A stretch of DNA of 64,000 nucleotides from a bacterium (lineage in GTDB: Bacteria; Hydrothermota; Tepidihabitantia; B3-TA06): contig JAAYVC010000095.1 of the NCBI GenBank assembly GCA_012517375.1, positions 7,061 through 71,060 of the forward strand. The letters are read 5' to 3'. Shown here piece after piece: positions 29,946-55,521 of the stretch; within the stretch, counting starts at the first letter, position 1; every line of letters begins with the position of its first letter. Position numbers and translations under genes: made by a program. The notes beneath the pieces are model-generated. The model saw only the letters and a list, made by a program, of their open reading frames with translations, was not told the origin of the DNA and searched no databases.

Positions 29946-29982
29946 GTAAAGCCTCCTTTAAAAGATTTCCACATTCAAAAAG

Positions 29983-30312: not shown

Positions 30313-30356
30313 AAAGCTGGTCAAAAGATGGTCAGAAGATGGTCAAATGATGGTCA
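30313..30356 (+). repeat. Four tandem copies of the 11-bp direct repeat RAWGMTGGTCA.
   Basis: The copies are AAAGCTGGTCA AAAGATGGTCA GAAGATGGTCA AATGATGGTCA. The same unit recurs at 53412-53444 and 53542-53607. Confidence 0.9.
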
Positions 30357-32974: not shown

Positions 32975-32993
32975 CTGTCCCCCTTATATTTGT

Positions 32994-36188: not shown

Positions 36189-36197
36189 CTTGACCCG

Positions 36198-36944
36198 CTA
36201 CATGAGCATTCCGCCGTCCACCCTGATCACCTGACCGGTGATGTAGGAGGCGTCATCCGAACAAAGGAACTTGACGACCTTTGCAACGTCTTCCGGGGTG
36301 CCCGGCCGCTTCAGGGGAATCTGTTTGAGGAAGTATTCCTTGACCTCATCGGGCAGGACTTCCGTCATTGGCGTCTGGATATACCCTGGCGCCACGCAGT
36401 TTACCGTTATGTTTCTCGAGCCCAGCTCGCGTGCAAGAGTCATTGAAAAGCCAATTAGGCCCGCCTTGGATGCCGAGTAGTTTGCCTGGCCTACGTTTCC
36501 CATCTGCCCGACTACCGAACTCATATTGATTATACGGCCCCAGCGCTCCTTCATCATCGACTTGACGAAAGCCTTTGATACATTGAATGCGCCAGTGAGA
36601 TTGACCTTAAGCACCGTTTCCCAGGTATTTGAGTCCATGCGGATGAACAGCGTGTCGCGCGTTATCCCGGCGTTGTTTATTACTATGCTGACAGTGCCCT
36701 GCTCCTGCTCTATTCGCAAGGCAAGCTCATTCATCGCATCGAGAGATGTAACGTCGGCTTTGTAAAAAAAAGCCTCTCCTCCAGCGTCTTCGACGAGTTT
36801 CTTTGTTTCTTTGAGTCCTTCCTCGTTAACATCCAGAAGAATCTCGCGGTAAGTGCCTGCCAGTTCCAACGCTATTGACCTGCCTATTCCTGCTGCCGCA
36901 CCTGTTATCAATGCCCTTTTGGTTTCATTCACAATTTCCTCCAA
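36198..36944 (-). CDS. fabG: 3-oxoacyl-[ACP] reductase (SDR family).
   Basis: It has TGAAAGIGRSIA, NNAGITRD and YSASKAG catalytic-tetrad motifs. It is 248 aa. Confidence 0.85.
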   Translation of the reverse strand: MEEIVNETKRALITGAAAGIGRSIALELAGTYREILLDVNEEGLKETKKLVEDAGGEAFFYKADVTSLDAMNELALRIEQEQGTVSIVINNAGITRDTLFIRMDSNTWETVLKVNLTGAFNVSKAFVKSMMKERWGRIINMSSVVGQMGNVGQANYSASKAGLIGFSMTLARELGSRNITVNCVAPGYIQTPMTEVLPDEVKEYFLKQIPLKRPGTPEDVAKVVKFLCSDDASYITGQVIRVDGGMLM

Positions 36945-36950
36945 ACTGTA

Positions 36951-38681: not shown

Positions 38682-38685
38682 AACG

Positions 38686-39042
38686 TCACTTCTTAGTCTC
38701 CTCCTTCTCCTTCATCGAGCATCGGCCTTCAAAAAAGACGTTGTCCTGAATCACGAGCCCTTTGCATGTGACGTCGCCAGTCAGATTCGCCCCTGAATGC
38801 ATCTCAACCTTGCCGTGCGAATAGACGTTACCCTCTATTCTTCCGCCGACAAAGGCATCCTTGCAGCGAACGTCGCCTTTAACCCGGGCGCTTGAACCGG
38901 CCGTGAAGGTATCGGAGACGGTTATGTTGCCTTCGAACTCTCCGTCTATACGGAGACTGCCCTTAGTTTTAACGTTGCCTGTAATTATTGTCTCTTTTCC
39001 AATTATCGTATCAAGCTTGGCGTCTTTGCCAGTGCTATTCAT
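38686..39042 (-). CDS. Bactofilin family cytoskeletal protein.
   Basis: It is 118 aa with beta-helical repeats (GSLRIDGEFEGNITVSD...ARVKGDVRCKDAFVGGRIEGNVYSHGKVEMHSGANLTGDV). Confidence 0.8.
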   Translation of the reverse strand: MNSTGKDAKLDTIIGKETIITGNVKTKGSLRIDGEFEGNITVSDTFTAGSSARVKGDVRCKDAFVGGRIEGNVYSHGKVEMHSGANLTGDVTCKGLVIQDNVFFEGRCSMKEKEETKK

Positions 39043-39991
39043 TGTATACTCCTCCTTTATATTCGCGTTTGAGGATGAAAAGGTTAGAGGGGTCTATAGG
39101 GGTTCCTTTGTGGCGCACTTCGAAGTGAAGATGAGGTCCGCTCGAGCGGCCTGTGTTGCCCACAAAGCCCACTATTGTATTCATTTTTACTTTTTCTCCC
39201 TTTTTCACCGTAACAGACTGCAGGTGTCCGTAGAAAGTTTCGTAATAAGGCCCGTGTCGTATCTTAAGAAAATTGCCGTATGTGGAATCGACACCTACAT
39301 CGCTTACAACACCCTCAGCCGTAGCAAAAACAGGCTTCCCCTCAGACGTTGCAAAATCTATTCCGGGGTGCGATTGAGAAAAGCCACGAGAAACCTGGAA
39401 ACCTACCGTGGGTAGTACCTGAGGATAAAAACCTTCTACGTCTTTCTCTATAAGATTCGTGTCAGGAGGCAAGGTGTCCAGGCTGTCCAGCTTCGGGATA
39501 ATAGGCCTGTACTGAAAAACAAGTTCTGTTGAATCCACAGGTCCGGGAGCTTTGGCAAGTCCGAGCATTATCCTGAGCTGGTCGAGTTTCTTCTCGCTCG
39601 TCGCAAGTTCCTTTTTAAGAACGGGCAAGTTGACCAAACCCTCTTCAAGTTCGGAGTTTCTCCTTCGCAAGTAATGGACCTCAGCTACTTGTCCGTATAT
39701 TTGAAGGGAATAAATAAGCATGAAGATGACGCCCGCTACGAAAACTCCAATGCCTGATAGTATTGCCAGAACCGCGTTCCTCGAATAGGTTTTGCCGAAG
39801 TATTTGTTTGTGTAGTTGGGTGTGATATTGAAGGATATCCTCTTCGGGATACTAAGCGGTTTATCGTAACGCTTCGGGGTCCGCTCTACGGGTTTTGTTG
39901 TAGCTTCACCGTTTGGTGGTTTATCCAGCTTCAGCTCCTGCTGTTTTTTATTCGATTTCTGCTCTTTTGGCTTCATTTCACAAGCCTCCAT
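39035..39991 (-). CDS. M23 family (LytM-type) peptidoglycan endopeptidase, membrane-anchored with a coiled coil.
   Basis: It has an N-terminal transmembrane helix and coiled coil. The C-terminus is HPGIDFAT...GNFLKIRHGPYYETFYGHL...GNTGRSSGPHLHFEV. Confidence 0.85.
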   Translation of the reverse strand: MEACEMKPKEQKSNKKQQELKLDKPPNGEATTKPVERTPKRYDKPLSIPKRISFNITPNYTNKYFGKTYSRNAVLAILSGIGVFVAGVIFMLIYSLQIYGQVAEVHYLRRRNSELEEGLVNLPVLKKELATSEKKLDQLRIMLGLAKAPGPVDSTELVFQYRPIIPKLDSLDTLPPDTNLIEKDVEGFYPQVLPTVGFQVSRGFSQSHPGIDFATSEGKPVFATAEGVVSDVGVDSTYGNFLKIRHGPYYETFYGHLQSVTVKKGEKVKMNTIVGFVGNTGRSSGPHLHFEVRHKGTPIDPSNLFILKREYKGGVYNE

Positions 39992-40872
39992 ACGAGCTTA
40001 AGCAATGCATCGTAATCGGTTTTCCTTACCTTCTCGACCCCCTGAGCGTAGCGCTCTAATGGTATTCCTAATACGGCACATTCTAAACCCGCCCTTGCGA
40101 GAATGTCCGATGCCGATGAATGCTCTAAATTTATTGTATTCCTAACGACGACTTTCTCCTTCGCGGCAAGATCGCTTACATACTCCCTCGTGTTTGACGA
40201 GGGAATACTCCGCTGGGTTCTCACCGGCAACAACACGCTTCCCTCGCTGTTTTGGGATGGCGAAGGCATCGCTTCAAGAACGAACGTATTCGAGACGCTC
40301 ATACCCGCCATTGACGATGTAAGTCCCATATATCCAAGATGCTTCCCTGTGTAAAAAAGAAAGGCAACAGGCTTTTTGATTTCACCCGATTTTGATGCGA
40401 GTTCGAGCAGAATAGCCGAGGCGAGCCTGTCGGAAAGGGCGCTTGCATATATTGAATTATCTGTTTCGAAAAACTCGGGCGCCCGAACAAGAAACGTGCC
40501 TGCAGAAATATCGCCAGCGAAAAGTGGTTCGGCGCGCTGCTCCTTCCCGTCGCACGAAGGCGACACCAAATAGCGGTTTCCCTTTTCATCGAGGGCCCAG
40601 CCGCCTTCCTGAACCGGACCGGATGGAAGCGTTTTCAGATGCATTACGCCCTCAGCGTCCTTGTGTTCAACCACCCACGAACGCTGGTCGGTGTTAGTGA
40701 CAAAAAGCTCATAAGGCTCTTTCCCGCGGAAGCCCTTAAGATTTCCGAGATTGTCTATTGATACTTCAAAACCGGCATCGCTTAGTTCTTTCTTCAAATA
40801 CTCGACAAACAAAGCCTCCCTGCCCGTAGGTCCAAAAAGGAAGCAGACTTTCTTTAGCAATTCAACGTTCAA
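39973..40872 (-). CDS. M42 (TET/FrvX aminopeptidase) family paralogue that is predicted catalytically inactive.
   Basis: It aligns with the two downstream M42 genes. It has TNTDQ in place of H(M/L)D(E/Q)VG, and GKHLG in place of QEEVG. At 299 aa it is shortened. Confidence 0.55.
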   Translation of the reverse strand: MNVELLKKVCFLFGPTGREALFVEYLKKELSDAGFEVSIDNLGNLKGFRGKEPYELFVTNTDQRSWVVEHKDAEGVMHLKTLPSGPVQEGGWALDEKGNRYLVSPSCDGKEQRAEPLFAGDISAGTFLVRAPEFFETDNSIYASALSDRLASAILLELASKSGEIKKPVAFLFYTGKHLGYMGLTSSMAGMSVSNTFVLEAMPSPSQNSEGSVLLPVRTQRSIPSSNTREYVSDLAAKEKVVVRNTINLEHSSASDILARAGLECAVLGIPLERYAQGVEKVRKTDYDALLKLVWRLVK

Positions 40873-41899
40873 TGTAACGCCTCTTTAAATCATGTGTCAC
40901 TTTTTTAACTAGCTTTATTGCATTAATTATATCATCAGTGGATGAAATTGCAACAGGCGAATGTATGTATCTAGAAGGTACTGCCACAACGGCCGCATCA
41001 AGAGATTTAACCCTTACCGCAGCGCCTGCATCAGTACCGCCGACAAGAGGTCTTTTATACTGCCAAGGCAGGCCGCAAGCGTCCGCCGTATTCGTTATGA
41101 AATCCATAAGTCTTCTGCTCGCGACAACGCTTCCGTCCAGTATGGTAATGACAGGACCCTTGCCGATTCTCGGAAGCCGCGACGTGTCTTTATCGACCGG
41201 AACATCGCCTGCGCCAGTACCTTCAACGACGATTAGTATATCCGGCTTAACCCTTGCGGAGGCTATTCTTGCGCCTCGCAATCCCACCTCCTCCTGCACC
41301 GTCCAGATAAAGGTAACCGGTACATCATAGTCTTCGCGAATGAGTTCTGCGAGTATGTAGCAGCCGAGTCTGTCGTCAAAAGCTTTTCCCTTTATGATGC
41401 CGTCTCTTGCTTCGAAATTCGTATCGAAAGCGACCGGATCTCCTGGCGATACAAGGCTTTGGGCCTGCGCTTTTGATGATGCTCCTATATCCAACCTTAA
41501 ATCTTTTATGCCTATAACTTTTTTTGAATCCATGGCATCCACGAGGAAAGGCGGTACGCTGCCGATGACGCCAGGTATCCGTTCCTTTCCGACGGTCACT
41601 CTCTTCGCAAGAAGGACCCTTGGGTCTATACCGCCCAGAGGAGTAAGCTTGATATATCCATCTTCGTCCACCCTGTCGACCATCAGCCCGACCTCATCCA
41701 TGTGCGCTGCAAAGGCGAGATGAGGTCCGCGATTTCCCTTCCCCTTAGTCATATAGAGATTGCCGAGCCAGTCAGTTTCGACTTCATCGGCATAGCTTGA
41801 GACTTTGTCGTGGATGAGCGTCCTGACTTCATCTTCAAGTCCGGGAAGCCCGTTCGTGTCCGTCAGTTCTTTAAGGAATTCTCTGTCTAAAGACTCCAT
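40862..41899 (-). CDS. M42 family metallo-aminopeptidase (TET / FrvX-like).
   Basis: It has FAAHMDEVGLMV, FDDRLGCY, VQEEVGLRGA and YIHSPV, so all metal ligands are present. Confidence 0.8.
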   Translation of the reverse strand: MESLDREFLKELTDTNGLPGLEDEVRTLIHDKVSSYADEVETDWLGNLYMTKGKGNRGPHLAFAAHMDEVGLMVDRVDEDGYIKLTPLGGIDPRVLLAKRVTVGKERIPGVIGSVPPFLVDAMDSKKVIGIKDLRLDIGASSKAQAQSLVSPGDPVAFDTNFEARDGIIKGKAFDDRLGCYILAELIREDYDVPVTFIWTVQEEVGLRGARIASARVKPDILIVVEGTGAGDVPVDKDTSRLPRIGKGPVITILDGSVVASRRLMDFITNTADACGLPWQYKRPLVGGTDAGAAVRVKSLDAAVVAVPSRYIHSPVAISSTDDIINAIKLVKKVTHDLKRRYIER

Positions 41900-42927
41900 A
41901 TCTCCTTATCCGCAAACACTCTTGAAAGAAGAAGCGAGGCATTCTCGACATCCTTCATGTCCATCACCTCGACGGGCGTATGCATGTAGCGGACTGGTAT
42001 TGAAATAAGCGCCGCAGGCAAACCTTCGGCTATAAGGGTAATGACGTCCGATTCTGTGCCTGTAGAGCGTCCGAGAGGTTCCAGACCATAGGGCACGGAT
42101 AGCGTCTCAGCCTTATTTTTTATTGCCTCAAGATGCGGCTTTGACAAGACAGGACCAACGCCCAGCGTCGGGCCTGCACCCAAGGGAAATGAATAATCGC
42201 TCGATCCGTGAGAAATTCCGTATGTAACATCGGCGACAACGGCAAAAGAAGGATGAGCGGAGGACATGCTTCTTGCAGCGGATGAAGCCCCTAACATCGA
42301 GACCTCCTCCTGTGCGGATGCGACGAATAGAATCTTGCCGGGAAGCTTGCGCGCGTTGAGTTCCTTGGTAAGAAGCAAAGAAAGAAATACACCCGCCTTG
42401 TTATCCAGGCCGGCTGAGGTCACGAGAGAACCTTGAAGCGCCTTCGGTTTGGAATTCCAGACACACGGGTCTCCGGTTCCGACAATCCCTCTTAGCTCCT
42501 CAGCCTTCATACCGACGTCTATGTAAAGCTTGTCTGCAGGAATTGTCTGTCTGCGCTCTTCTTCGGTGACGAAGTGCGGCGGGCTCATACCTACAACGCC
42601 CCTTAGAGCTTTTTTCCCAAGCACGGTTAGCTCCTGTGAAACCACTATCCTAGGATCGATGCCGGGCATCTTGACGTATATGTAGCCTTCATCATCTACA
42701 TGTTCGACGATCAAGGACACCTGGTCAAGATGCGCGAAAAAAAGCGCCGTTCTCTCACCCTGGCCTATCTCCCAGCTCAGGCCTGAAGTACCAAGGTCAA
42801 AAGAACGGACGCTAATCGAATCAAGATACTCTTCAAGAAATCTCTTGGCCATTCCTTCGTGACCGGATGGAGATGGGATCTCAAGAAAACTGAAAAACAA
42901 ATCCCGGTTCATCTGGTTTTGAACCAC
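41887..42927 (-). CDS. M42 family metallo-aminopeptidase (TET / FrvX-like).
   Basis: It has FFAHLDQVSLIV, LDNKAGVF, AQEEVSMLGA and YMHTPVE. Confidence 0.8.
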   Translation of the reverse strand: MVQNQMNRDLFFSFLEIPSPSGHEGMAKRFLEEYLDSISVRSFDLGTSGLSWEIGQGERTALFFAHLDQVSLIVEHVDDEGYIYVKMPGIDPRIVVSQELTVLGKKALRGVVGMSPPHFVTEEERRQTIPADKLYIDVGMKAEELRGIVGTGDPCVWNSKPKALQGSLVTSAGLDNKAGVFLSLLLTKELNARKLPGKILFVASAQEEVSMLGASSAARSMSSAHPSFAVVADVTYGISHGSSDYSFPLGAGPTLGVGPVLSKPHLEAIKNKAETLSVPYGLEPLGRSTGTESDVITLIAEGLPAALISIPVRYMHTPVEVMDMKDVENASLLLSRVFADKEIWSL

Positions 42928-43748
42928 TCTATCAGTCTTGACAGTTCCGATTCGTCAGAGAAGAGAAGTTCTAGACGACCGCCCTTTCCGGAACGTAGGA
43001 GTCTTACCTTTACACCAAGCTTTTCTCCAAGGAATTCTTCAGTGGACGCCCTTATTCCGTCATGCTGCTTGCGCCGCTCTGGCATCGTTACCCTGTTTGA
43101 CGACTGCGCTATCTTCTCGACAGACCTCACGGTAAGTCCTTCGCTCACTATTCTGTCGCATACCTTTTCGATAAGCGATACGGACGTGATGGAAAGCATC
43201 GCCCTTGCATGTCCCTCCGATATCTTGCCCTCTTCAATGAACAATCTGGCTTTTCGCGGAAGCGACAGCAACCTCATGGTGTTCGCAACAGTGGAGCGGT
43301 CCTTTGCGACAATCCTTGCTATCTCCTCCTGGGTCATGGCGAACTCCTCGCTTAACTGCTTGTATGCAAGCGCAGACTCAATAGGATTAAGGTTCTCCCT
43401 CTGAAGGTTCTCAACCAAAGCAAGCGCCAGCATCTGCTTCTCGGTAACTTCCTTGATGACGACCGGAACGTCAGTAAGACCTGCGAGCTGGGACGCCTTA
43501 AGCCTGCGCGAGCCAGCTACAAGCTGATAGCCTGAGCCGTGTTTTCGAACGACTATCGGCTGCAGCACCCCGTGCTCCCTTATTGAAGCTGCAAGTTCGG
43601 CGACCTCCTGGCCCGTCACCTTTCTCGGCTGGTACGGGTTATCGGCAATGAGCTTTACAGGAAGCGTGAGCGGCGGTTCCTTTGAGTCCTTCTGGACGGT
43701 TGCAGGGATCAGCGCTTCGATTCCCTTTCCTAGCGCTTTTCTAGCCAC
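42909..43748 (-). CDS. parB: Chromosome partitioning protein ParB.
   Basis: It has GLTDVPVVIKEVTEKQMLALALVENLQRENLNPIE (ParB box) and a helix-turn-helix. Confidence 0.9.
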   Translation of the reverse strand: MARKALGKGIEALIPATVQKDSKEPPLTLPVKLIADNPYQPRKVTGQEVAELAASIREHGVLQPIVVRKHGSGYQLVAGSRRLKASQLAGLTDVPVVIKEVTEKQMLALALVENLQRENLNPIESALAYKQLSEEFAMTQEEIARIVAKDRSTVANTMRLLSLPRKARLFIEEGKISEGHARAMLSITSVSLIEKVCDRIVSEGLTVRSVEKIAQSSNRVTMPERRKQHDGIRASTEEFLGEKLGVKVRLLRSGKGGRLELLFSDESELSRLIEWFKTR

Positions 43749-44496
43749 GCGATATCACCTCGCTCGCAAGCTCGAGATAAGCCTGGGCGCCTCTTGAGTT
43801 GATGTCGTAGTGAAGGATGGTCTGGCCGAAGCTCGGAGCCTCGGCAAGGCGAACGTTACGCGGAATCATAGTTACGAAAACCTTTCCCGAGAAATACTTT
43901 CTTACCTCCTCTGCGACCTGGTCTGCAAGATTCGTGCGGGGGTCGTACATAGTCAGAAGCACACCGAAAATCTCGAGACCGGGATTTAGGGACTGCCTGA
44001 CGCGGTTGAGGGTATCAGTAAGCTTGCTGATTCCCTCAAGAGAATAGTACTCGCACTGAACCGGAATAAGCACGCCCTCGGCAGCAACAAGCGCATTGAG
44101 GGTAAGGATGCCGAGCGAAGGCGGAGCATCCATAATGACGTAATCGTAGGAATCAAGCCCTTCTATCGCTCGTTTAAGTCTTGCTTCCCTTGCCTCTGAG
44201 TCGATCAGCTCTATCTCAAGGCCTGCAAGATCGAGCGACGCCGGTATAATGTCAAGGTACTTTACAGAAGTACCCTGTACGGCTTCGCGGGTACGCTCCG
44301 GGTCCATGAATATCTCGTATGTAGAAAGCTTCGGCTCGCGGTTGTCTATCCCCAGACCGGATGTGGCGTTTGCCTGGGCATCCACATCGATGAGAAGAAC
44401 CCGTTTTTCGGCAACCGCTAGCGCGGCCGAAAGGTTGATGGCGGTGGTGGTCTTGCCGACCCCGCCCTTTTGGTTGACTACGGCAATCCTTCTCAT
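43741..44496 (-). CDS. parA: Chromosome partitioning ATPase ParA/Soj.
   Basis: It has the deviant Walker A motif MRRIAVVNQKGGVGKTTTAINLSAALA. Confidence 0.95.
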   Translation of the reverse strand: MRRIAVVNQKGGVGKTTTAINLSAALAVAEKRVLLIDVDAQANATSGLGIDNREPKLSTYEIFMDPERTREAVQGTSVKYLDIIPASLDLAGLEIELIDSEAREARLKRAIEGLDSYDYVIMDAPPSLGILTLNALVAAEGVLIPVQCEYYSLEGISKLTDTLNRVRQSLNPGLEIFGVLLTMYDPRTNLADQVAEEVRKYFSGKVFVTMIPRNVRLAEAPSFGQTILHYDINSRGAQAYLELASEVISRG

Positions 44497-44499
44497 TCT

Positions 44500-45810
44500 T
44501 TATGTTATTGAATTATCACCGCTTGTCAACAAAACCGCGGGAGACATAAGTTCCGGAATCTTGTATAAGTCGTCTGCAGAGACTTCCTTCTGCTCACTGG
44601 TTGTCATGTTTCGCAAGATAAAGCGTCCTTTAGCTATCTCATCGTCGCCTATTATCAGTACATACCTTGCGTTTCTTGCGGAAGCGCGCTTAAGGAGTTT
44701 GGAAAGACCTGCCTCGCGGTATTCGAGCTGGACATGGATTCCTTTTTCGCGGAGCCTGAAGGCGAGTTCCAGGCCAAAGCTTGCTCCACGTTCACCTAAA
44801 GGAAGCAAAAGAAGCGGTATGGCGTAACCCGGGAATTCGAGAATCGATTCCCCCTTCGAAGCAAGGAGCGCGCGTTCGACACCGAAAGCGAAACCTATGC
44901 CAGGAGCCGGCTGCCCGCCCATCTCCTCCATGAGGTAGTCGTACCTGCCTCCGCCGCAGACGGTATCCTGGGCGCCGAGTGTTGTCGATTTGAATTCTAT
45001 GACGGTACGGGAATAGTAGTCGAGTCCTCTGACCAGACGAGCGTTTTCGGTATACGGTATCGAAAAGGTGCCGAGACCTCTTTTGACGCCTGAAAAATGC
45101 GCCGAACACTCCTCGCACAGATATTGTGATTGCGACGGAGCGTCCTTCAGAATATTCTGACACCTTTGGAGTTTGCAGTCGAACACCCTTAAGGGATTGC
45201 GGGTCATCCTCAGCTTGCAGTCGTCGCAAAGGTCTTCTTTATGCTTTTCGAGAAAGGCCACAAGGGTTGACGTATAGCCGGGCCTGCACTCTCTGCATCC
45301 TATCGAGTTGAGTTCGAGGTAAAGCCCTGCGATTCCTATGTTCGAGAAAAGGTCGTATCCGAGTTTTATCAATTCGACGTCGACCCCAGACTCTGCCTCG
45401 CCCAGAATCTCGACGCCTATCTGCGTGTGTTCTCGGTAGCGGCCCTTTTGCGGTTTGTCCTGCCTGAACATGGGCATCATGTACCACAACCGTATGGGTA
45501 GTTTGAGATTGTTTTCCAGTACGGCGCGTATAACAGAGGGGGTTCCCTCGGGACGAAGTGCAAGTTCCCTCTGAGCCATATCCTTGAAGTGGTACATCTC
45601 CTTGGTGACGATATCGGAAGATTGACCAGTGGAACGTTCGTAAAGCTCGCAGGATTCGAATGTGGGCGTCAAAATTGGCAGGATTCCGGCCTTAAGGAAG
45701 TATCTTGAGACGAGTTCCTGGAGCTCCTGTCGCGCGAAACCCTCTCTCGGAAGGACGTCTCTGGTTCCTTTAACCCGCTGAAAGCGCACGTTTCTTTCTC
45801 CAGTAGCCAA
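44500..45810 (-). CDS. hisS: Histidine--tRNA ligase.
   Basis: It has FQRVKGTRDVLP (motif 1 region), class II motifs and GGGRYD. It is 436 aa. Its true start is possibly an internal GTG. Confidence 0.9.
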   Translation of the reverse strand: MATGERNVRFQRVKGTRDVLPREGFARQELQELVSRYFLKAGILPILTPTFESCELYERSTGQSSDIVTKEMYHFKDMAQRELALRPEGTPSVIRAVLENNLKLPIRLWYMMPMFRQDKPQKGRYREHTQIGVEILGEAESGVDVELIKLGYDLFSNIGIAGLYLELNSIGCRECRPGYTSTLVAFLEKHKEDLCDDCKLRMTRNPLRVFDCKLQRCQNILKDAPSQSQYLCEECSAHFSGVKRGLGTFSIPYTENARLVRGLDYYSRTVIEFKSTTLGAQDTVCGGGRYDYLMEEMGGQPAPGIGFAFGVERALLASKGESILEFPGYAIPLLLLPLGERGASFGLELAFRLREKGIHVQLEYREAGLSKLLKRASARNARYVLIIGDDEIAKGRFILRNMTTSEQKEVSADDLYKIPELMSPAVLLTSGDNSIT

Positions 45811-46102
45811 GAAAATATCCGGTTATTATGCCTGCTTCGTTGAATGCTATATCCCAGAAGCCCACCTGCCTTCCAGGAGCAAGAAGTTGAAGAAACTCGT
45901 TTCCTGCTCCGAAGGCGAGAACGAGAATTGCTGCCCACCATCCGAATGACCTTGAGGTAAGGTATCCCAGATACGAAAATGCAAAAAAATGCAGTATCTT
46001 ATCCATGGGGAATTTGTGAGCAGGCGTTATCCTTCCCGGTATGAGGGAAAGCGCGACCAGGAATAACACCCATACGATAAGATATACGTGATACCGCCGC
46101 AT
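45770..46102 (-). CDS. VanZ-like family membrane protein.
   Basis: It is 110 aa with 3-4 transmembrane helices. It has DKILHFFAFSYLGYL and NEFLQLLAPGRQVGFWDIAFNEAG. Confidence 0.55.
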   Translation of the reverse strand: MRRYHVYLIVWVLFLVALSLIPGRITPAHKFPMDKILHFFAFSYLGYLTSRSFGWWAAILVLAFGAGNEFLQLLAPGRQVGFWDIAFNEAGIITGYFLGYWRKKRALSAG

Positions 46103-46103
46103 C

Positions 46104-46721
46104 CTAACCCCTTATTATCTCTTTAATCCTCATGAGGCGAGTGAGATTCCCTCGCTCCATCTCCGAAAGCTTCAGGTTAATGTAGGAGATCGTTTCCTTG
46201 ATATTCGGGACCACTATGTATTCCAGGGCATTCACGCGCCGCCGGGTACGCTCAATCTCTTCGGCAACAAGTTCAAGTGTCTTCTCCTTCTCGGCCAATA
46301 GAACCATCTTTTCGAGAACGGCGAATATAGCTTCAAGCGAAAGGTCAAGCTCGGCAGACGTTTCGAGAAAACCGTAGCACCGCATTTTTCCTTCGAGCCT
46401 TGGCTTGAAGGTCGGCGCCTTTACGTTAAGGATTCTTTTCGTCCCTGATTCTATTTCGAGTTTCACAGACGGAAGCGACGTTGCGATATCGGCCGAGCGG
46501 GGATTACGCTGATTCTTGGCCAAAGCGTATCTGGCAAAGGCTTTCCTCAGTGCGTCCTCCACCTCCTTCCGGAGAGCCTGAATCTCGTCGACAAGAGAGT
46601 AGACATTGCGCATGAGCTCTTCGAGCTTGTCCTTGAGAAGTTTGTGGCCTCGCTCCGCGATAACGAGTCTCCGCCTCAGCTTCAGGAGCTCCATCCTTGT
46701 CGCGTTGACGTTCAATCTCAC
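46104..46721 (-). CDS. atpD: V-type ATP synthase subunit D.
   Basis: The N-terminus MRLNVNATRMELLKLRRRLVIAERGHKLLKDK is a hallmark of the V/A-type D subunit. Confidence 0.9.
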   Translation of the reverse strand: MRLNVNATRMELLKLRRRLVIAERGHKLLKDKLEELMRNVYSLVDEIQALRKEVEDALRKAFARYALAKNQRNPRSADIATSLPSVKLEIESGTKRILNVKAPTFKPRLEGKMRCYGFLETSAELDLSLEAIFAVLEKMVLLAEKEKTLELVAEEIERTRRRVNALEYIVVPNIKETISYINLKLSEMERGNLTRLMRIKEIIRG

Positions 46722-46772
46722 GAAAACCTCTCTTCCGCAGATTGAGCAATTCTCTTATAAAAGGTCTTCAAC

Positions 46773-48266
46773 TCAGTCCTTCTTCGAATCCTTGCCGGCA
46801 AGGGCTGCATCGAAGTATTTCGCAAGATTCTCATCACGGACGCGCTTCATTTCAGATCTTGGAAGCGTGGTCAGGAGCTCCCAGCCCAGGTCGAGCGTAT
46901 ACTCTATTGTTCTGTTCTCATATTCCGACTGGGAGATGTAGCGGCGTTCGAAATCCTCCGCAAACTTCATGTAAAGCTTATCTATATCCGTGAGAGCGGC
47001 CTCTCCGAGAATGACCGCAAGTTCCTGAGCCTCTTTCCCTCTCGCGTAAGCCGCATATAGCTGATTGAAGGAATCGGCATGATCCTCACGAGTCTTGCCT
47101 TTGCCGATGCCCTTATCCTTCAAACGAGAGAGAGAAGGAAGAACGTCTACGGGAGGCGCGACGTTCTTGTTGTTGAGGACTCGGGAGAGGATTATCTGAC
47201 CTTCGGTGATGTAGCCTGTGAGGTCGGGAATAGGATGGGTCTTATCGTCCTCAGGCATGGTAAGTATGGGTATGAGGGTTATGGAACCCTTAGAGCCTTT
47301 GATTCTTCCGGACCGCTCATAGATAGTCGCAAGATCAGTGTAGAGATAGCCGGGATAACCGCGCCTGCCGGGAATCTCCTTTCTTGCTGCCGAGATCTCG
47401 CGAAGCGCCTCGCAGTAGTTGGTCAAATCGGTCAAGATGACGAGAACGTGGTAATTCTTTGTAAAAGCCAGGTACTCGGCTGCGGTGAATGCCACGCGCG
47501 GTGTTGCGATTCGCTCGATTGCCGGGTCATCGGCAAGATTAAGAAAAAGGACGGTGCGTTCAAGAGCGCCAGTGCGTCGGAAATCCTCGATGAAAAACTC
47601 TGCCTCCTCGAAGGTAATGCCCATTGCTCCGAAGACGACTGCGAACTCCTCGCCCGTTCCAAGAACCCTGGACTGCCGGGCAATCTGCGCGGCCATGCGG
47701 TTGTGAGGAAGACCGGAACCTGAGAAGATGGGCAGCTTCTGACCGCGAACTAGCGTGTTGAGGCCGTCGATGGCGGAGATGCCTGTCTGGATGAACTCGT
47801 TAGGGTAGCTTCTTGAGAAAGGATTGATAGGAAGACCGTTTATGTCCCTGAACTCCTCGGGTATGATTGCGGGAGAGTGGTCGCGCGGCCTGCCAAGACC
47901 GTCGAATACCCTGCCTAAAAGCTCTTCGGAGACACCCAGGGTGATGCCCTTACCGAGAAAGCGCACGCGTGTTTGGCCTATTTCGATTCCGGACGAACCC
48001 TCGAATATCTGGATAAGAGCCTTATCCTGGTTGACCTCAAGCACTCTGCCCCTGCGGCGTTCGCCTGACGGAAGGTAAATCTCAACGAGTTCTTCGTATT
48101 TGACTCCCTCCACTCCCTCGACAAGAAGCAAAGGCCCTGCAACTGAGGAGATAGTCTGGTAATCGGTTATGCCTTTAAAGGCTCTAGTTACATCTGATGC
48201 ATCACTGGTGTCGCTGGTGCTACGGGTGTTACGGGTATTACTGGTATTACGGGTGTTACGGGTCAT
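46773..48266 (-). CDS. atpB: V-type ATP synthase subunit B, with an unusual ~27-aa low-complexity N-terminal extension.
   Basis: The core from [36 protein letters not shown]... onward aligns with the NtpB/AtpB consensus. The N-terminal [26 protein letters not shown] is encoded by 9-bp tandem repeats. Its ATG overlaps the atpA stop. Confidence 0.9.
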
Positions 48267-50035
48267 GATACATCCTTTCTCAAAGCTGAAATATCTGTGG
48301 TGATTTCTTCTTCGATTTTCGTGATGCTTTCCCGTTCGGCTTCAGGCAGGTATCTGACTCGGGCTATCTTCTCCCTTACGGGCAGATTGATAAGGCCGTC
48401 AAGCCCGGCGCCCTGTTCGAGCGCCTTCTTCGATTCGCGGAAGTATCTGAGTACAAGGGAGAGCATGCGCGCCTGCTTATCAAGGCTTGCGTATGTGTCA
48501 ATCTCGTGGAATGCGTTTTGATGCAGGAAATCCTCGCGGATAGAGCGCGCGGCTTCCATTATAAGGCGCTCGTTAGGCGAAAGGGCGTCAATGCCTATGA
48601 GACGGACTATCTCAGCGAGATCGGCCTCCTCCTGAAGAAGCCTCATGGCTTCCTTTGAATCCTCGAGGAACTTCGGACCGATGACCGATTTAAGGGATGA
48701 GGCTATTGAGTCAGAGTATAAGGAGTACGAACGAAGCCAGGAGATGGCAGGAAAATGGCGGGCGTAGGCAAGGTTCGCTTCAAGCGACCAGAACACCTTC
48801 ACGACGCGAAGGGTCGCCTGCACTACAGGGTCGGAAAGGTCTCCTCCGGGTGGCGAAACTGCTCCTATTACGGAAAGCGCGCCACGCCTTGAATCCGAGC
48901 CAAGGCACTCGACAAGCCCGGCCCGCTCGTAAAACTCGGCGATACGGGCGGAGAGGTATGCAGGATAACCTTCCTCGCCCGGCATCTCCTCGAGCCTGCC
49001 GGATATCTCGCGCATTGCTTCTGCCCACCTTGAGGTCGAGTCTGCCATAAGGGCCACGGAGTAGCCCATATCGCGGAAATATTCTGCGATAGTTATTCCT
49101 GTGTAGACTGAGGCTTCGCGCGCAGCAACCGGCATGTTAGATGTGTTGGCTATGAGTACCGTCCGTTTCATAAGGGGTTCTCCGGACTTGGGGTCCTTGA
49201 GTTCAGGGAACTCGATGAGAACGTCGGTCATCTCGTTACCGCGCTCTCCGCAGCCCACGTACACGATGACCTCGGCATCAGCCCATTTAGCAAGCTGGTG
49301 CTGGATTACCGTTTTTCCAGAACCGAAAGGTCCTGGAACGCAGGCGGTTCCTCCCTTACCCAGAGGGAAAAAAGCATCAACCACGCGCTGTCCGGTCGAA
49401 AGTATCTCATGCGGAGCGTATTTGCGTTCATAAGGTCTGGGCTTGCGGACCGGCCAGCGTTCGAGCATTGTCACTTCAGCCTTTTTCCCGTCGGCATTCT
49501 TGATAACGGCAACGGTTTCTTCGATTGTAAAGCTGCCGGAGTTTATCTCCACTACCTCGCCTGAAACTCCGGGCGGAACCATTATCCTGTGCTCTACAAG
49601 GATGGTTTCTTTTACCGTACCGAGGATATCGCCGGGTTTTACGTTCTGGCCTTTTTTTGCAGAAGGATTAAACTGCCACCTGCGCTGTCTTGAAAGAGCA
49701 GGGACTTCCACACCGCGGGATATGAATGCTCCCGTTTTTTCACTGATGTCGGACAATGGACGCTGGATGCCGTCGTAAATGGCTTCCATGAGTCCTGGAC
49801 CAAGCTCGACTGAAAGAGGTTCGAAGGTCGGATACACGGGTTCTCCCGGGCCTATCCCACCCGTATCTTCGTAAACCTGAATGGACGCTCTGTCGCCTGT
49901 AAGACCGATTATCTCTCCGACCAGACGTTTTTCCGAAACCTTAACCACATCGTACATCTTCGAGGTGCTCATACCCTCTGCGACAACTAGGGGTCCTGAA
50001 ACCTTAACTATGCGACCGGTATCTTCTTTTCTCAC
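48263..50035 (-). CDS. atpA: V-type ATP synthase catalytic subunit A.
   Basis: It has Walker [10 protein letters not shown] and the typical non-homologous-region insert. It is 590 aa. Confidence 0.95.
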
Positions 50036-52125: not shown

Positions 52126-53121
52126 ATGAAGTTTTTCTTAGGAGTTATACTTGCAGTTCTGGGTTCAACTGCAGACGATGAAGCCGTAGTCAACGCAATA
52201 CCCGGAAAGGTGAGCATTCTCAACTATACAGAGGCTGAAAACCTGAGAATCTATCCCCTATCCTACTCCGGCGACGCTAAAAGCTTTATGGTTCTCAAGG
52301 ATGCCCTGGATAAAGGGCTCGTCGTTGTCAAGGAAAAGGACGAAGGCGAAGTCAATACAGTACTTGTGAAAAATAAGGGATCGAACTCCGTTTTCGCGAT
52401 GGCAGGCGAAGTCATCCTCGGCGCTAAACAGGACCGAATGATAGAAAACGACCTTATCCTTCCACCGAACTCCGGATGGCTCGAAGTCGCAGTCTACTGC
52501 ACCGAACACGGCCGCTGGTCAGGCTCAAGCAAGGAGTTTGCAGCCGCAGACATCAACGTCTCGCCTTCTGTACGAGCCAACGCACGGGCGAATAAAAATC
52601 AGTCAGAAGTCTGGGCTAAAGTAGCTGAGAATCAAGAGAAAGTAATGGGCGGCGCTTCTTCAACCGGCGCATTCAAGGATATTTACGATTCAAAATCCTA
52701 CCAGGGCGACCGCGACAAGTACTGGAAAAAGCTCAAAGACCTTGCCGACAACAACTCAAACATGAAGGGCGTTATCGTATGCGTAGGCGATGAGGTTGTA
52801 GGGATCGACCTCTTCAGTTCCCATACGATGATGAAGAGCTATTGGCATAAGTTGCTGGATTCTTATATAGTTGAAGCAATGCAGGGCGATCAGCACGGCT
52901 CCGTCTCATGGCAGGAAGCAAAAGACCTTTTGAATGAATACACAAAGGCAGACCTCGACGACGAGTATACTCCGGGATCAGGTGACTTATACGAAGTCGA
53001 AGGCGGCGATTCGCAAGGTTCTGTGATTCTTTCAGGCGGCATTCTCGTGCATACCGACCTGTTTCCCGAGCAAACCTCTAAGCCCGTGATTGACGATTAC
53101 AACCAACGATACAACGAGTAG
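52126..53121 (+). CDS. Hypothetical secreted protein.
   Basis: It is 331 aa with a signal peptide. I recognised no catalytic motif. It starts 16 nt after tonB. Confidence 0.45.
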   Translation: MKFFLGVILAVLGSTADDEAVVNAIPGKVSILNYTEAENLRIYPLSYSGDAKSFMVLKDALDKGLVVVKEKDEGEVNTVLVKNKGSNSVFAMAGEVILGAKQDRMIENDLILPPNSGWLEVAVYCTEHGRWSGSSKEFAAADINVSPSVRANARANKNQSEVWAKVAENQEKVMGGASSTGAFKDIYDSKSYQGDRDKYWKKLKDLADNNSNMKGVIVCVGDEVVGIDLFSSHTMMKSYWHKLLDSYIVEAMQGDQHGSVSWQEAKDLLNEYTKADLDDEYTPGSGDLYEVEGGDSQGSVILSGGILVHTDLFPEQTSKPVIDDYNQRYNE

Positions 53122-53199
53122 AAGTTACTATCCGACAAGGGGTTATGGAGTCTGCCCCAACGGATAACCCAATGAGCACAAAGACTCCGCATGTAGCGA

Positions 53200-53232
53200 G
53201 CGATCGCCGCCACAATAAGTGGCGGCGATTTG
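53200..53232 (+). terminator. Perfect 11-bp-stem hairpin ATCGCCGCCAC-aataa-GTGGCGGCGAT, probably the terminator of the 52126..53121 gene.
   Basis: It was seen directly in the sequence. It is followed by TTTGCTTAAGTTATT. Confidence 0.5.
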
Positions 53233-53411
53233 CTTAAGTTATTCCTTTCCTTAAGTTATAGATTGACTTAAGCTGAGGGATTCAATTCCTACGACACGTA
53301 ATAAGTGACGGCGATTTACTAAGTTATTTTTTATTTTTATTTCGATGGAACCAAGCGCATCTTTCTAAAAGGGTCCCCGCAAAGCTGCGGAGCAGGTTTG
53401 TGGGATAGAAA

Positions 53412-53444
53412 AAGATGGTCAAAAGATGATCAAAAGATGGACAA
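53412..53444 (+). repeat. Three tandem 11-bp repeats of the RAAGNTGGTCA family.
   Basis: The copies are AAAGATGGTCA AAAGATGATCA AAAGATGGACA. Confidence 0.85.
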
Positions 53445-53492
53445 TTCGGGAAATTTGCCTTCCAAAATGACCAAATAATAGGGACAAATTTA

Positions 53493-53520
53493 AAACCGCC
53501 ACTCAGGGCGGTAGGTTTTC
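53493..53520. terminator. Bidirectional rho-independent terminator-like hairpin.
   Basis: The sequence is aaACCGCCactcagGGCGGTaggttttctc. It is T-rich on both sides. Confidence 0.5.
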
Positions 53521-53541
53521 TCGGAGTATTTTTCGTGAAAA

Positions 53542-53607
53542 AAAGTAGGTCAGAAGTTGGTCAGAAGTGGGACAAAAGATGGTCAAAAGCTGGTCAAAAG
53601 ATGGACA
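53542..53607 (+). repeat. Six tandem 11-bp repeats of the RAAGNTGGTCA family.
   Basis: The copies are AAAGTAGGTCA GAAGTTGGTCA GAAGTGGGACA AAAGATGGTCA AAAGCTGGTCA AAAGATGGACA. Confidence 0.9.
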
Positions 53608-53806
53608 AATCAACCGCTAAGATGAAGTCAGATTTAATAGTTTGTTGTCAGGTTCAATGGAACGCCTCAGAGCAACATTCCAATGTCATTGCGAGGCTTC
53701 ATCCAGAAGACGAAGCAATTGCCCAAATCATCTTGATCTTTACCCTCTCCTCAGGAAGATGATTCAACGTAGGGGCCGACTTTCAAGTCGACCCGCACCG
53801 CTCGGG

Positions 53807-55057
53807 CTAGATGTTTCCTTCCTCATTTCCATCATCTTGATCTTCATTTTCTTCTTCATATCCAATTTCTTGCTTTGCTTCTTCAACGGGAAGTTCTTCG
53901 ACTTTTCTAAGTTTACCCTGTATCGTTTTCGTTTTTGTAGTGGCTCTTTTTATTGTACCACTTACAGTTTGCAATTGCTTTTGTGTGGTTTCTAAAAGCT
54001 GACCGAAGTTCCCAAACTCGGTCTTAACAGCACCTAGCAATTTCCATACTTCACTAGAACGTTTTTGGATTGTCAAAGTTCTAAACCCCATATGCAAACT
54101 ATTGAGAAATGCAGCAAGCGTCGTTGGACCATTAATTGCAACCCTAAATTCACTTTGCAGACTCTCGGATAACCCTGGTATTCTTATAATCTCCGCAAAT
54201 AGACTCTCTGTGGGTAAGAACATTATTCCAAAATCTGTAGTCTTTGGTGGATCTAAGTATTTATCTTTGATTGATCTAGCTTCTTTTTTGATTGTATCCG
54301 CTAGTTGTTTTCTAGCTATCTCAATCAGCGTGACATCTGCCTTTTCTTGGGCTTCAAGCAATTTGGAATAATCTGCCTGTGGAAATTTTGCATCTATAGG
54401 TAGAAAGACCTCTCCTCCATCCTCATCGCTTTTACCAGGCAACTTTATGGCGTATTCAACCCTCTCTTTTGACCCCTTCTTTATTTGCACATCTTTTTCG
54501 TATTGTTCAGGTGTTAATATTTCTTCAAGAAGATTGCCTAGTTGAATCTCCCCCCAAGTACCTCTAGCTTTCACATTGGTTAATACTTTCTTGAAATCGC
54601 CAACATCGGCCGCCAAAGTCTTCATCTCACCAAGCCCCTGCTGAACGGATTCAAGTTGCTTACTTACCTGATTGAACGATTCACCTAAACGTTTTTCAAG
54701 AGTTGTGTGTAGTTTTTCATCAACTGTTTGTCGCATTTGTTCAAGTTTTTTTTCATTGTCTTCCCGTAATTCCTTTAGCTTCTGATCCATAGTATCTCTC
54801 ATGTAATCAAGTCTTTTCCCAGTTGATTCGGATAAGTCTTTTATTTGATTATTTACTTCTTCCCTAAGAACCTTAGCGTTTTCATTGGATTCTTTTCGAT
54901 TGGTTGCAAACTCACCACGTACAGTACTTCCTAATTCGTTATTAAAACCTTTTAAGATTTCTGATATTTTTTCCTCACTTTTAGTGGGTTTTTTTAGAAG
55001 CACAAATACAAGTAGAACGATAACCACAATCAAAAGAGAAAGCAGAACATATTGCAT
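53807..55057 (-). CDS. rmuC: DNA recombination protein RmuC.
   Basis: It has an N-terminal transmembrane helix and a long coiled coil. The RmuC domain reads ...GTWGEIQLGNLLEEILTPEQYEKDVQ.... It has an acidic C-terminal tail. GC is low (about 40%). Confidence 0.8.
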   Translation of the reverse strand: MQYVLLSLLIVVIVLLVFVLLKKPTKSEEKISEILKGFNNELGSTVRGEFATNRKESNENAKVLREEVNNQIKDLSESTGKRLDYMRDTMDQKLKELREDNEKKLEQMRQTVDEKLHTTLEKRLGESFNQVSKQLESVQQGLGEMKTLAADVGDFKKVLTNVKARGTWGEIQLGNLLEEILTPEQYEKDVQIKKGSKERVEYAIKLPGKSDEDGGEVFLPIDAKFPQADYSKLLEAQEKADVTLIEIARKQLADTIKKEARSIKDKYLDPPKTTDFGIMFLPTESLFAEIIRIPGLSESLQSEFRVAINGPTTLAAFLNSLHMGFRTLTIQKRSSEVWKLLGAVKTEFGNFGQLLETTQKQLQTVSGTIKRATTKTKTIQGKLRKVEELPVEEAKQEIGYEEENEDQDDGNEEGNI

Positions 55058-55094
55058 AGAAACCTCCTGTTTGGTTTCTTTTTTTTGAATTCGG

Positions 55095-55125
55095 AATTAC
55101 GAAATCTTACCCCTTTTCCCTTCCT
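55095..55125 (-). promoter_or_regulatory. Sigma70-like promoter (TTGACA-N16-TAAGAT) for rmuC.
   Basis: The reverse strand reads gcTTGACAaggaagggaaaaggggTAAGATttcg. The RBS is CAGGAGG. Confidence 0.45.
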
Positions 55126-55263
55126 TGTCAAGCCCATTCTTATCAGGAACTTAAGGCGTAAAAGAATCCGTCATCGCGAGGGAGTCGAAGGCGACCGTGG
55201 CGATCTCATAGCACTATCTCAAAAAACGCAAGAAAGAGCCATGTGTTTTAAGCATGTTGCCAT

Positions 55264-55322
55264 GAGATTGCTTCGATTGCTCGAAGCAATCTCGCAAAGA
55301 CAAGGGGCTTAAGCCCCTTGTC
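55264..55322. promoter_or_regulatory. Two adjacent perfect palindromes: a 13-bp-arm inverted repeat (GAGATTGCTTCGA-ttgc-TCGAAGCAATCTC) and a 24-bp perfect palindrome (GACAAGGGGCTTAAGCCCCTTGTC).
   Basis: They were seen directly. They lie between the transporter 3' end and the rmuC promoter, so they could be a terminator or a dimeric-regulator site. Confidence 0.6.
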
Positions 55323-55521
55323 TGAAAAAAGGCTGAAGGCGATTGTTCCGCAAGCGTCGCCCTTCGGACTCACGGCCGCTAGAAGCATCCTCAGAATGAC
55401 GTGGGAGTGTTGTTACGGGTCCCCCTCCCTGGTGGACAGCGTGCCCCTTGGGGTGCCTGCACCTCATAGGGTAGGGGGTTGGGGGCGGGGACATCCGGGG
55501 GGTCCCCAAACGAGAACGCAG

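Follow-up and report, generated by a model that had tools for sequence, protein, structure and literature searches.

The 685-bp gap at positions 53122-53806 of a 64,000-nt stretch of contig JAAYVC010000095.1 (hereafter the window, meaning the whole stretch analysed) separates a gene for an ARPP-1-domain protein (52126-53121, plus strand) from rmuC (53807-55057, minus strand). The gap consists of three layers: the structured tail and terminator of the upstream gene, a local duplication, and one instance of a Stahlbacteria/WOR-3 repeat mosaic. The mosaic contains arrays of an 11-bp unit, and these belong to a repeat family that is intergenic, polar, modular, independent of gene orientation and persistent at orthologous loci, with rapid turnover of single units. 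We estimate a probability of about 0.5 that the arrays are phased, iteron-like protein-binding DNA within a composite repeat of the BOX/BIME (bacterial interspersed mosaic element) type. Judged from its sequence, the family appears to be new and lineage-specific, and of a known kind, the bacterial interspersed composite repeats. The searchable literature yielded no paper mentioning the motif and no repeat family described for WOR-3/Stahlbacteria, and a WOR-3 genome survey does not mention repeats.

An earlier note on this DNA had suggested that the gap might be an unannotated noncoding RNA (ncRNA) or a regulatory hub. We conclude with high confidence that it is neither a locus-specific ncRNA gene nor a control region, and that it represents the 3' end of a gene followed by one copy of a composite repeat. 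The arrays and three of the hairpins are dispersed copies of repeat families, found with every arrangement of flanking genes. A hub that controls ARPP-1 or rmuC is not supported, as nothing points there.

The 11-bp arrays and the modules around them

The 11-bp unit reads RAAG-N-TGG-W-CA. Two plus-strand arrays lie in the gap, 96 bp apart: array B (53410-53446), with three units whose hexamers are TGGTCA, TGATCA and TGGACA, and array C (53541-53609), with six (AGGTCA, TGGTCA, GGGACA, TGGTCA, TGGTCA and TGGACA). Both had been described in the earlier note, and Tandem Repeats Finder recovered them as 3.2 copies at 53410-53444 and 6.3 copies at 53541-53609. A third array, A (30296-30356, plus strand), which had not been linked to the gap before, contains four clear and two degenerate units, with three RAAGNTGGTCA matches at 30313-30345; it lies ~350 nt upstream of an OmpA-like gene and points away from it. 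Across the window, RAAGNTGGTCA occurs 7 times against 0.32 expected, a count reached in none of 100 shuffles.

The unit was analysed in 367 copies from 77 arrays. Detection did not rely on the spacer RAAG, which carries 1.4-2 bits per position; the N position carries 0.06 bit. Arrays range from 3 to 9 units with a mode of 5. They are polar in composition: 77% of arrays open with the hexamer TGGTCA and 90% close with TGGACA, array C among the latter, while a third unit type, TACCCA, occupies internal positions. The consensus AAAGnTGGwCA is common to all seven lineages, and the full collection, drawn from more than seven lineages, comprises 204 arrays in 1.3 Mb.

An exact-pattern scan for TGGTCANAAGNTGGTCANAAGNTGG over one genome per species (185,579 species) returned 70 loci, ~63 of them in six metagenome-assembled genomes (MAGs) labelled Candidatus Stahlbacteria or candidate division WOR-3. 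A similar scan of Joint Genome Institute (JGI) metagenomes gave at least 120 loci. Each sampled MAG holds many arrays, up to ~20 by exact pattern, and the family is present at many intergenic sites in every sampled Stahlbacteria/WOR-3 genome. Proteins of the window are 52-88% identical to proteins of the MAG array loci, and the window organism therefore belongs to the same lineage.

Several other matches were rejected. Those in Streptomyces, Nonomuraea and Limnobacter lie in DNA of 68-75% GC without array architecture, and one in Omnitrophota resembles a coding repeat by eye; all are apparently due to chance. The Ga0126342 contigs from JGI (loci L149 and L158) carry an unrelated AT-rich satellite sharing the 10-mer by chance; irregular repeats resembling TTGGTCAAAAG fill both of its strands to either side of an inverted repeat. 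Matches in Bacteroidales and Cloacimonetes were also set aside, as they are different 11-mer arrays, TGGTCA(G/T)AAG(G/C). In these two MAGs (L068 5226-5385 and L050 1616-1643, respectively), the TGGTCA core is combined with the spacers GAAGG, TAAGG or TAAGC, and in L068 the 11-bp arrays are followed by heptamer arrays like those beside WOR-3 arrays. Arrays of 11-bp TGGTCA units in other genomes of the FCB (Fibrobacteres-Chlorobi-Bacteroidetes) group may reflect a wider repeat style.

Arrays are almost always intergenic, and the four orientations of flanking genes, called with a simple longest-ORF (open reading frame) proxy, are equally common (16, 14, 13 and 13 arrays, with 13 in convergent gaps). 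The convergent setting of the window gap is thus not special. Array orientation along contigs is mixed. A replication-strand bias of the kind seen with KOPS (FtsK-orienting polar sequences) or Chi was considered, as the first four two-array contigs were co-oriented, and was discarded: four long metagenome contigs were mixed, locus L138 carries opposite arrays 3 kb apart, and orientation showed no correlation with that of neighbouring genes.

The arrays persist at orthologous positions. With ARPP-1 homologues as an anchor, orthologous loci were obtained at 97%, 84%, 67% and 64% ARPP-1 identity, and the mosaic beside ARPP-1 is orthologous in the window, L079, L085, L088 and L029. In the genome MAG095 the mosaic is present even though tonB and ARPP-1 are missing. 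Many other array loci are syntenic between MAGs with flanks 73-92% identical, and unit number, N bases and neighbouring modules vary among them. Three array loci of other genomes are syntenic with the window, and at two of the three, upstream of the OmpA-like gene and beside the V-ATPase/DUF401 interval, the window has an array as well. The first of these is matched by L013, where an array lies ~290 nt upstream of a 65%-identical OmpA-like gene and is oriented relative to it as array A is in the window; the third syntenic locus, L066, carries an array without a counterpart in the window region. An attempt to use rmuC as an orthology anchor was abandoned, as the best non-self RmuC matches are only ~61% identical and not syntenic.

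Against this long-term stability, single units turn over rapidly. A sister strain is ~99% identical overall and 97% identical in ARPP-1, with a background divergence of 0.2-0.8%. Array C differs from its sister copy by 7 substitutions in 69 nt (10%), and array B by 2 positions (5%) and a one-unit indel, the sister having four units with an extra TACCCA. The motif is stable over long times, and single units change ~20 times faster than their surroundings.

Module positions around the arrays were counted over the 204 arrays. The composite begins with a 5' module, either M1 or the M2 hairpin, continues as a polar run of 3-9 head-to-tail units and ends in a 3' module, M3 or M4. M1, which is 38 nt long and sharply bounded at its 5' edge (AACTCGTCAGGTTTGAGTGCAACTCGTCACAA...), precedes the first hexamer by exactly 8 nt in 61 arrays and is on the array strand in every one of them. 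The window arrays have M2 or a degenerate M1, not a clean M1. The 3' position, ~5 nt past the last hexamer and on the array strand, is occupied by M3 (consensus AAA.gGGGg.a.TTT.GGG) or M4 in 70 arrays; this placement holds for M3 in 25 of 25 cases and for M4 in 45 of 45. At array B, this place is taken by a degenerate M3-like stretch (53447-53462, plus strand, AATTCGGGAAATTTGCC) that matches the M3 consensus weakly. M4 (hairpin GCGACTNCGTCGC) was seen to run into long heptamer tandem repeats at L018, L059, L062, L030 and other loci; the heptamers (TGCAAAA/ATCAAAT, AGATTAA/AGATTGG and CAGCTGA/CGGCTGA) recall cyanobacterial short tandemly repeated repetitive (STRR) arrays.

M2 occupies 53371-53409 on the plus strand and has the form GGTCCCCG-stem-G(N)A loop-stem-TGGGG, a 14-bp hairpin with an A-rich junction to array B; the window copy has lost the outermost pair. 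In an alignment of 21 copies, 91.5% of the cells are paired, compared with 40-51% when the 3' partners are slid, and none of 500 shuffles matched this value. Both sides have changed in 8 of the 14 pairs. The loop is mostly GAA within GCGAAGC, and one pair is G.T in 17 of the 21 copies; therefore, one particular strand folds. On this covariation, M2 is probably a selected hairpin. Its strand is that of the array in 72 of 76 cases, and an A-run usually joins the two.

Three further hairpins complete the mosaic, which spans ~430 nt (53371-53797) and is arranged in the order M2 (53371), array B, the weak M3-like stretch, M7, array C, M6 (53687) and M5 (53769). M7 (53493-53520) is a terminator-like hairpin with the stem ACCGCC/GGCGGT, an A-run before it and TAGGTTTTCT after it. 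The earlier note had called it bidirectional, and its core at 53495-53512 does scan as a terminator on both strands. A copy in L039 has a compensated stem and an identical tail, and M7 is missing from the orthologous spacer of L085. M6 (53687-53719, plus strand) has the form CATTGCGAG-[variable palindrome]-CGAAGCAAT; each of its 13 copies in genome loci has a different self-complementary insert. M5 (53769-53796, plus strand), which resembles a repetitive extragenic palindromic (REP) element, starts with GTAG followed by GGGCCGAC-loop-GTCG(G/A)CCC and abuts the rmuC stop codon, where a hairpin had been reported. Its general form, GGGCCGAC-N5-6-GTCGGCCC, is found in ~20 copies in genome loci with the compensated stem variants GAC/GTC and GGT/ACC, and the window copy (53773-53794) has one mismatch. 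GTAG was part of the search pattern, and the hairpin directly follows it in ~20 of 23 matches.

M5 and M6 occur singly, 26-1287 nt from arrays and in either orientation, almost only on one side: M5 was found 41 times downstream and 4 times upstream of arrays, and M6 23 times downstream and never upstream. M5 is kept in L085 although rmuC is absent there. BLAST of the gap against all fetched loci showed recurrence limited to mosaic segments, with 53122-53350 locally unique. Since the flanking modules vary from copy to copy, no promoter/terminator frame around the arrays is conserved. A promoter within M1, or the final TGGACA acting as a -35 element, was rejected after scanning and inspection by eye, as the distance to -10-like hexamers was wrong or variable. 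Resemblance to the sigma-54 and integration host factor (IHF) consensus sequences, judged by eye, was only partial.

Readings of the arrays

The reading of the arrays as phased protein-binding DNA draws on several of their properties together. Ten of the 11 positions are fixed and one is free, the period equals one helical turn, the build is head-to-tail and polar, curvature is predicted, and the arrays are indifferent to gene orientation. In addition, arrays lie past the terminator of the upstream gene wherever this was checked (the window, L088, L012, L017 and L057). Every unit contains an A4 tract, repeated at the 11-bp period. In a wedge model of the 64 kb, arrays B, C and A form the 2nd, 3rd and 7th strongest curvature peaks; in the same framework, the end-to-end to contour ratio is 0.60 for eight consensus units and 0.97 for shuffled sequences, with a maximum of the effect at periods of 10-11 bp.

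Mechanistically, a sequence-specific protein shared by the whole lineage would bind every 11-bp unit. With units repeating once per helical turn, the sites would all face the same side of intrinsically curved DNA, where a short nucleoprotein filament or bend could form, as with plasmid iterons or the direct repeats bound by response regulators. Selection would act on the motif and on the presence of several units, not on any single unit, and slippage and gene conversion would be free to reshuffle the units. The hairpin modules may be REP-like single-stranded DNA or RNA elements that collect beside arrays. The whole element would then belong to the repeat and architecture layer of the genome and would not be a dedicated regulator of ARPP-1 or rmuC.

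Several points weigh against this proposal. No binding protein was identified, and the neighbouring genes of ~60 array loci suggest none. The curvature is a prediction that depends on wedge dinucleotide parameters attributed to Bolshoy et al. 1991. The ~20-fold excess divergence of arrays between sister strains is also expected from relaxed constraint with slippage, and most array variants of the sister strain move off the consensus. Near-identical composites at the non-orthologous loci L007 and L012 suggest duplication or mobility, which would require no host function. Finally, the G.T pairs found in M2 and in the GTAG hairpins are more in keeping with a single folded strand, whether RNA or single-stranded DNA, than with duplex DNA (PMC3733652).

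Some of the same observations fit a selfish composite repeat without host function, which we regard as possible and as the leading alternative. Here, M1-(11-mer)n-M3/M4 would be a non-autonomous element resembling BOX or miniature inverted-repeat transposable elements (MITEs), mobilised by an enzyme in trans; enzyme recognition and gene conversion would maintain the consensus, and the window copies would be old, partly decayed insertions. The sharp element edges, the modular A-Bn-C build and the near-identical copies at different loci of the same genome are consistent with this, as are the presence or absence of modules at orthologous loci (M2 in L025 versus L040, M4 in L073 versus L031), the array of L066 that has no equivalent in the syntenic window region, and the fast unit turnover and decay seen in the sister strain. 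The boxB number of pneumococcal BOX elements likewise varies by strain (PMC3049150).

Other observations weigh against it. No target-site duplications or terminal inverted repeats were seen at the array composites; the consensus sequences of M1 and M3/M4 are not inverted copies of each other, and no pair of filled and empty sites could be aligned. Among 1,558 clustered flanking ORFs from 8-kb blocks around the arrays (~60 loci), no mobilising or binding gene recurs, and the clusters contain only secreted-protein families and spurious translations of repeats. For the REP-associated tyrosine transposase (RAYT, Y1 transposase), no recurrent transposase-like family was found among the array-neighbouring ORFs, in a survey that included no search aimed at RAYT. 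The constancy of ten of 11 positions across lineages with proteins only 55-88% identical, together with the retention of arrays at orthologous sites, also argues against a purely selfish element and indicates that the family is longer-lived than typical REP or MITE families, which tend to differ between species.

A more ambitious version of the protein-binding proposal, which we consider tentative and rather doubtful, treats the arrays as chromosomal iterons. A lineage-conserved candidate DNA-binding protein would polymerise head-to-tail from the M1/M2 edge, making polar curved nucleoprotein landmarks at numerous intergenic positions and steering the insertion of REP-like single-strand hairpins to the 3' side. 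Such landmarks would organise the chromosome or act as barriers.

Action at the RNA level appears unlikely. In that case the arrays would be transcribed, as small RNAs or parts of untranslated regions (UTRs), and would present single-stranded UGGUCAAAAG sites to an RNA-binding protein that is thereby titrated or recruited; M2 would be a 5' stabilising hairpin and M7 a terminator, with 53371-53520 on the plus strand as the window candidate. M2 covaries with G.U-compatible pairs on the array strand, the modules are strictly polar on one strand, and M2, array B and the terminator-like hairpin with its U-run make a plausible unit of ~150 nt (z = -3.0) in which the array is mostly unpaired in the predicted fold. 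However, no sigma-70-like promoter was detected upstream of M2 (scan) or within M1 (consensus, by eye), and M7 follows arrays only in the window, the sister strain and L039, with M3/M4 and no terminator elsewhere. Between co-directional genes, arrays run with and against transcription in 13 and 16 cases, respectively, and the position of the checked arrays beyond the upstream terminator also speaks against their transcription. Covariance models of Rfam 15, the search proposed in the earlier note, gave no family for the gap: nothing reached the gathering score in the 64-kb window, and nothing scored at E ≤ 1 in 52900-54000.

Operator arrays for an OmpR/PhoB-type response regulator or another global transcription factor are improbable. 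The arrays would then define a regulon, and the gap would hold a regulated unannotated transcript. The build does resemble winged-helix direct repeats, with a conserved block of 6-7 bp, an A-rich 4-bp minor-groove segment and an 11-bp period, and the arrays of L007, L057 and L017 lie ~100-130 nt upstream of a good promoter. On the other hand, about a quarter of the arrays, including those of the gap, lie between convergent genes; no orientation or distance to gene starts is favoured, no -10 element was found by inspection at a fixed distance past the last unit, and the array of the OmpA-like gene is ~270 nt upstream of the conserved -35 element.

The window forms part of a 117-kb ENA metagenome contig; look-ups of the proteins at its two ends, meant to extend this contig, gave no record. 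A metagenome repeat that is chimeric or, as the earlier note had allowed for, collapsed or expanded is scarcely credible: two independent Logan assemblies with identical rmuC match the window exactly up to 53581, where their contigs end inside array C, and the repeat therefore breaks short-k assemblies, but four sister-strain contigs, each from another run, cross both arrays with the same module and gene order as the window, and the architecture recurs in an NCBI MAG and in JGI contigs.

The ARPP-1 end of the gap and its surroundings

The gap is long, repeat-dense and non-coding, as first described, and every feature listed in that description was found in its place. Four ORFs of the gap have no Pfam match, in line with the absence of a plausible coding frame, and the 30-codon frame is not conserved. 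This candidate small protein (MESAPTDNPMSTKTPHV..., 53145-53237) is frameshifted in L085, reduced to 10 codons in L088 and lacks an ATG in L086; it was rejected in favour of structure.

The first layer of the gap (53122-53236) is read, from sequence and predicted folding, as a structured 3' UTR of ~115 nt with the putative intrinsic terminator of the tonB/ARPP-1 operon, a TonB_C gene preceding the ARPP-1-domain gene on the plus strand. A stem-loop at 53129-53166 (plus strand) has an outer stem TATCCG/CGGATA and an inner stem GGGGT/GCCCC. It includes CCCCAACGGATAA, which had been taken for a copy of a recurrent motif; the sequence is not recurrent (3 loose matches in the window against 1.3 expected) and forms the 3' arm of this conserved stem-loop. 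The predicted terminator follows at 53203-53236 on the plus strand, with an AATAA loop and a TTTGCTT tail. Its perfect 11-bp stem, already noticed before, has arms at 53203-53213 and 53219-53229 and was also flagged by the terminator scan. The element has the build of an intrinsic terminator, a GC-rich hairpin and T-rich tract on the same strand just past the gene. A hairpin occupies the corresponding position in three other species, its stem differing in sequence but compensated.

RNAalifold applied to the window, L085, L088 and L086 (four species) gave 25 pairs, of which 7 have changed on both sides and still pair, and the stem-loop and terminator together have a fold z of -5.2. The ~115 nt past the ARPP-1 stop are ~90% identical between the window and L085, compared with 84% for ARPP-1 itself. 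The part of the ncRNA proposal that holds is the apparent selection of one-strand structure in the 3' UTR stem-loop, the terminator and M2; the case for a dedicated ncRNA is weak. The last ~15 codons of ARPP-1 (53081-53121) diverge sharply from L079, an otherwise 99%-identical sister: the gene shows 17 substitutions and 15 gap columns that cluster towards its 3' end, and the following 3' UTR is identical.

The second layer is an 86-bp unit of local tandem duplication (53233-53318, plus strand; AATAAGTGRC...TTAAGTTATT...). It carries the three CTTAAG sites already described (53233, 53250 and 53268), which are imperfect inverted repeats. The 30-bp direct repeats reported around these sites are two copies of the ~86-bp tandem unit; they hold as a 21-nt match at 90% (53214-53234 and 53300-53320), and the longer match needs one indel. 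The sister strain has one copy of the unit, the window two and L085 three of ~85 bp each, and in the sister contigs L079 and L083 the loss is a clean 86-bp gap. No copy was found in any other fetched locus. From these alignments, the duplication appears to have been gained and lost between close relatives.

On the rmuC side, conservation extends through M5 and ~17 nt beyond it, up to the rmuC stop codon. From the mosaic to the DUF401 gene, a variable slot was noted (window 53807-55521, L085 7960-9094 and L029 4905-6152); it is occupied by rmuC in the window and the sister strain and by an unrelated 233-aa gene in L085, and is empty in MAG095. Within it, the 464 nt from the rmuC start to the DUF401 end (55058-55521) differ between the sister strains by 8 substitutions and 4 gap columns (1.7%), above the flanks, and contain none of the named modules. 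A further arrangement was observed in L057 (MAG095) and L017 (CSMAG_1024), where a mosaic lies between two genes, geneX and geneY; in E44_bin36 the two flanks lie on separate contigs (L007 and L012), each beside a near-identical M1-array copy. This comparison of E44_bin36 with MAG095 and CSMAG_1024 suggests a rearrangement with breakpoints inside the repeat.

Array A lies in a second long gap (29946-30748), together with a degenerate M1-like stretch (~30241-30270) and an M3-like stretch past the array. The OmpA-like gene has a sigma-70-type promoter, TTGACA-17-TAAAAT, on the minus strand at ~30015-30045, conserved in L013. A perfect DnaA-box-like TTATCCACA is present at 30179, with TTATCCCCA at the matching place in L013. 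Between array A and the next gene, the minus strand contains an unlisted open frame of ~100 codons (30400-30745, ...LSELLHQTGIISRAELIGKKGRQDVLVSYQGLAVVLEGSYSKQDAEADAKKRIEQLSADMAIAIYYPPEF...), which may be a gene fragment. The G+C content steps from ~0.41 to ~0.51 near array A (1-30000 versus 30001-50000). A genomic island bounded by array A and arrays B/C was considered and is unsupported, as the gene content on both sides is ordinary chromosomal. Synteny with L013 around ~30000 covers the OmpA side only.

Relation to known systems and significance

In design, the family comes nearest to the pneumococcal BOX element, boxA-(boxB)n-boxC (PMC3049150). Both are composite intergenic elements with a fixed 5' module, a tandem internal module whose number varies among strains and a 3' module; both cluster with other small repeats and are crossed by spurious ORFs. 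The WOR-3 arrays show this build, with M1 fixed 5', 3-9 units, M3/M4 3' and unit numbers differing between sisters. The boxB module is about 45 bp long. The WOR-3 unit is far shorter and has one free position, and its consensus spans a class-level lineage. BOX elements reportedly possess terminal inverted repeats and give rise to target-site duplications (PMC3049150), and no sequence similarity between the two families was shown.

M5 shares with GTAG-tagged REP elements a short GC-rich stem-loop with an unpaired GTAG, intergenic location, multiple copies and compensated stems. It matches their sequence definition, a palindromic stem-loop with a stem of 5-13 bp and an unpaired terminal GTAG (PMC3733652); the phyla listed there for GTAG repeats do not include WOR-3 (PMC3733652). 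Like a BIME, the gap combines hairpins with further conserved motifs. BIMEs consist of regularly spaced REPs of alternating orientation together with other motifs (PMC2817692). The WOR-3 hairpins differ from this definition, as they stand alone, point either way and keep almost entirely to one side of the array.

The parC centromere of plasmid R1 comprises two sets of five 11-bp iterons in strongly curved DNA, with one ParR dimer bound per iteron (PMC2241845). The gap similarly has two blocks of 11-bp direct repeats with a short spacer and predicted curvature. However, parC is a single site per plasmid, with the par promoter between the blocks and parM/parR adjacent (PMC2241845), whereas the gap has a terminator-like hairpin between the blocks, ARPP-1 and rmuC as neighbours, and relatives at many loci per sampled MAG. 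Because each sampled MAG holds many arrays, they are not a centromere.

Two further classes of short repeats are comparable. Operators of OmpR/PhoB regulators are head-to-tail with an 11-bp period, a conserved block of 6-7 bp, an A/T-rich segment and a variable unit number; pho boxes consist of CTGTCATAAAT repeats, and the PhoP operators of Streptomyces are built of 11-nt direct repeat units. Such operators have a fixed place and orientation relative to the promoter, a relation that the WOR-3 arrays lack. Cyanobacterial STRR heptamers and the mycobacterial interspersed repetitive unit-variable number tandem repeat (MIRU-VNTR) loci are dispersed short tandem repeats and, like the WOR-3 family, form short arrays in the intergenic DNA of one lineage with copy numbers that vary among strains. 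They differ in unit length and sequence, and the WOR-3 arrays are polar, starting with TGGTCA and ending with TGGACA, and are joined to defined modules.

Among bacterial interspersed repeats, the family is unusual in combining a very short phased unit, a strict motif, quick unit turnover and a rigid polar build, with REP-like hairpins almost only on one side of the array. WOR-3/Stahlbacteria are known almost wholly from metagenome-assembled genomes, with one recently isolated cultured representative (PMC12285271). The motif is constant in the lineage, breaks assemblies, lies at synteny breakpoints and variable gene slots, and varies between near-identical strains; it could therefore be used to mark the lineage, to type strains and to warn of MAG fragmentation. 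Should there be a cognate protein, the arrays would provide a tractable entry to chromosome organisation or repeat mobilisation in an uncultivated lineage, and chromosomal iterons, if that more doubtful proposal were true, would be a new kind of host-encoded site structuring the repeat landscape.

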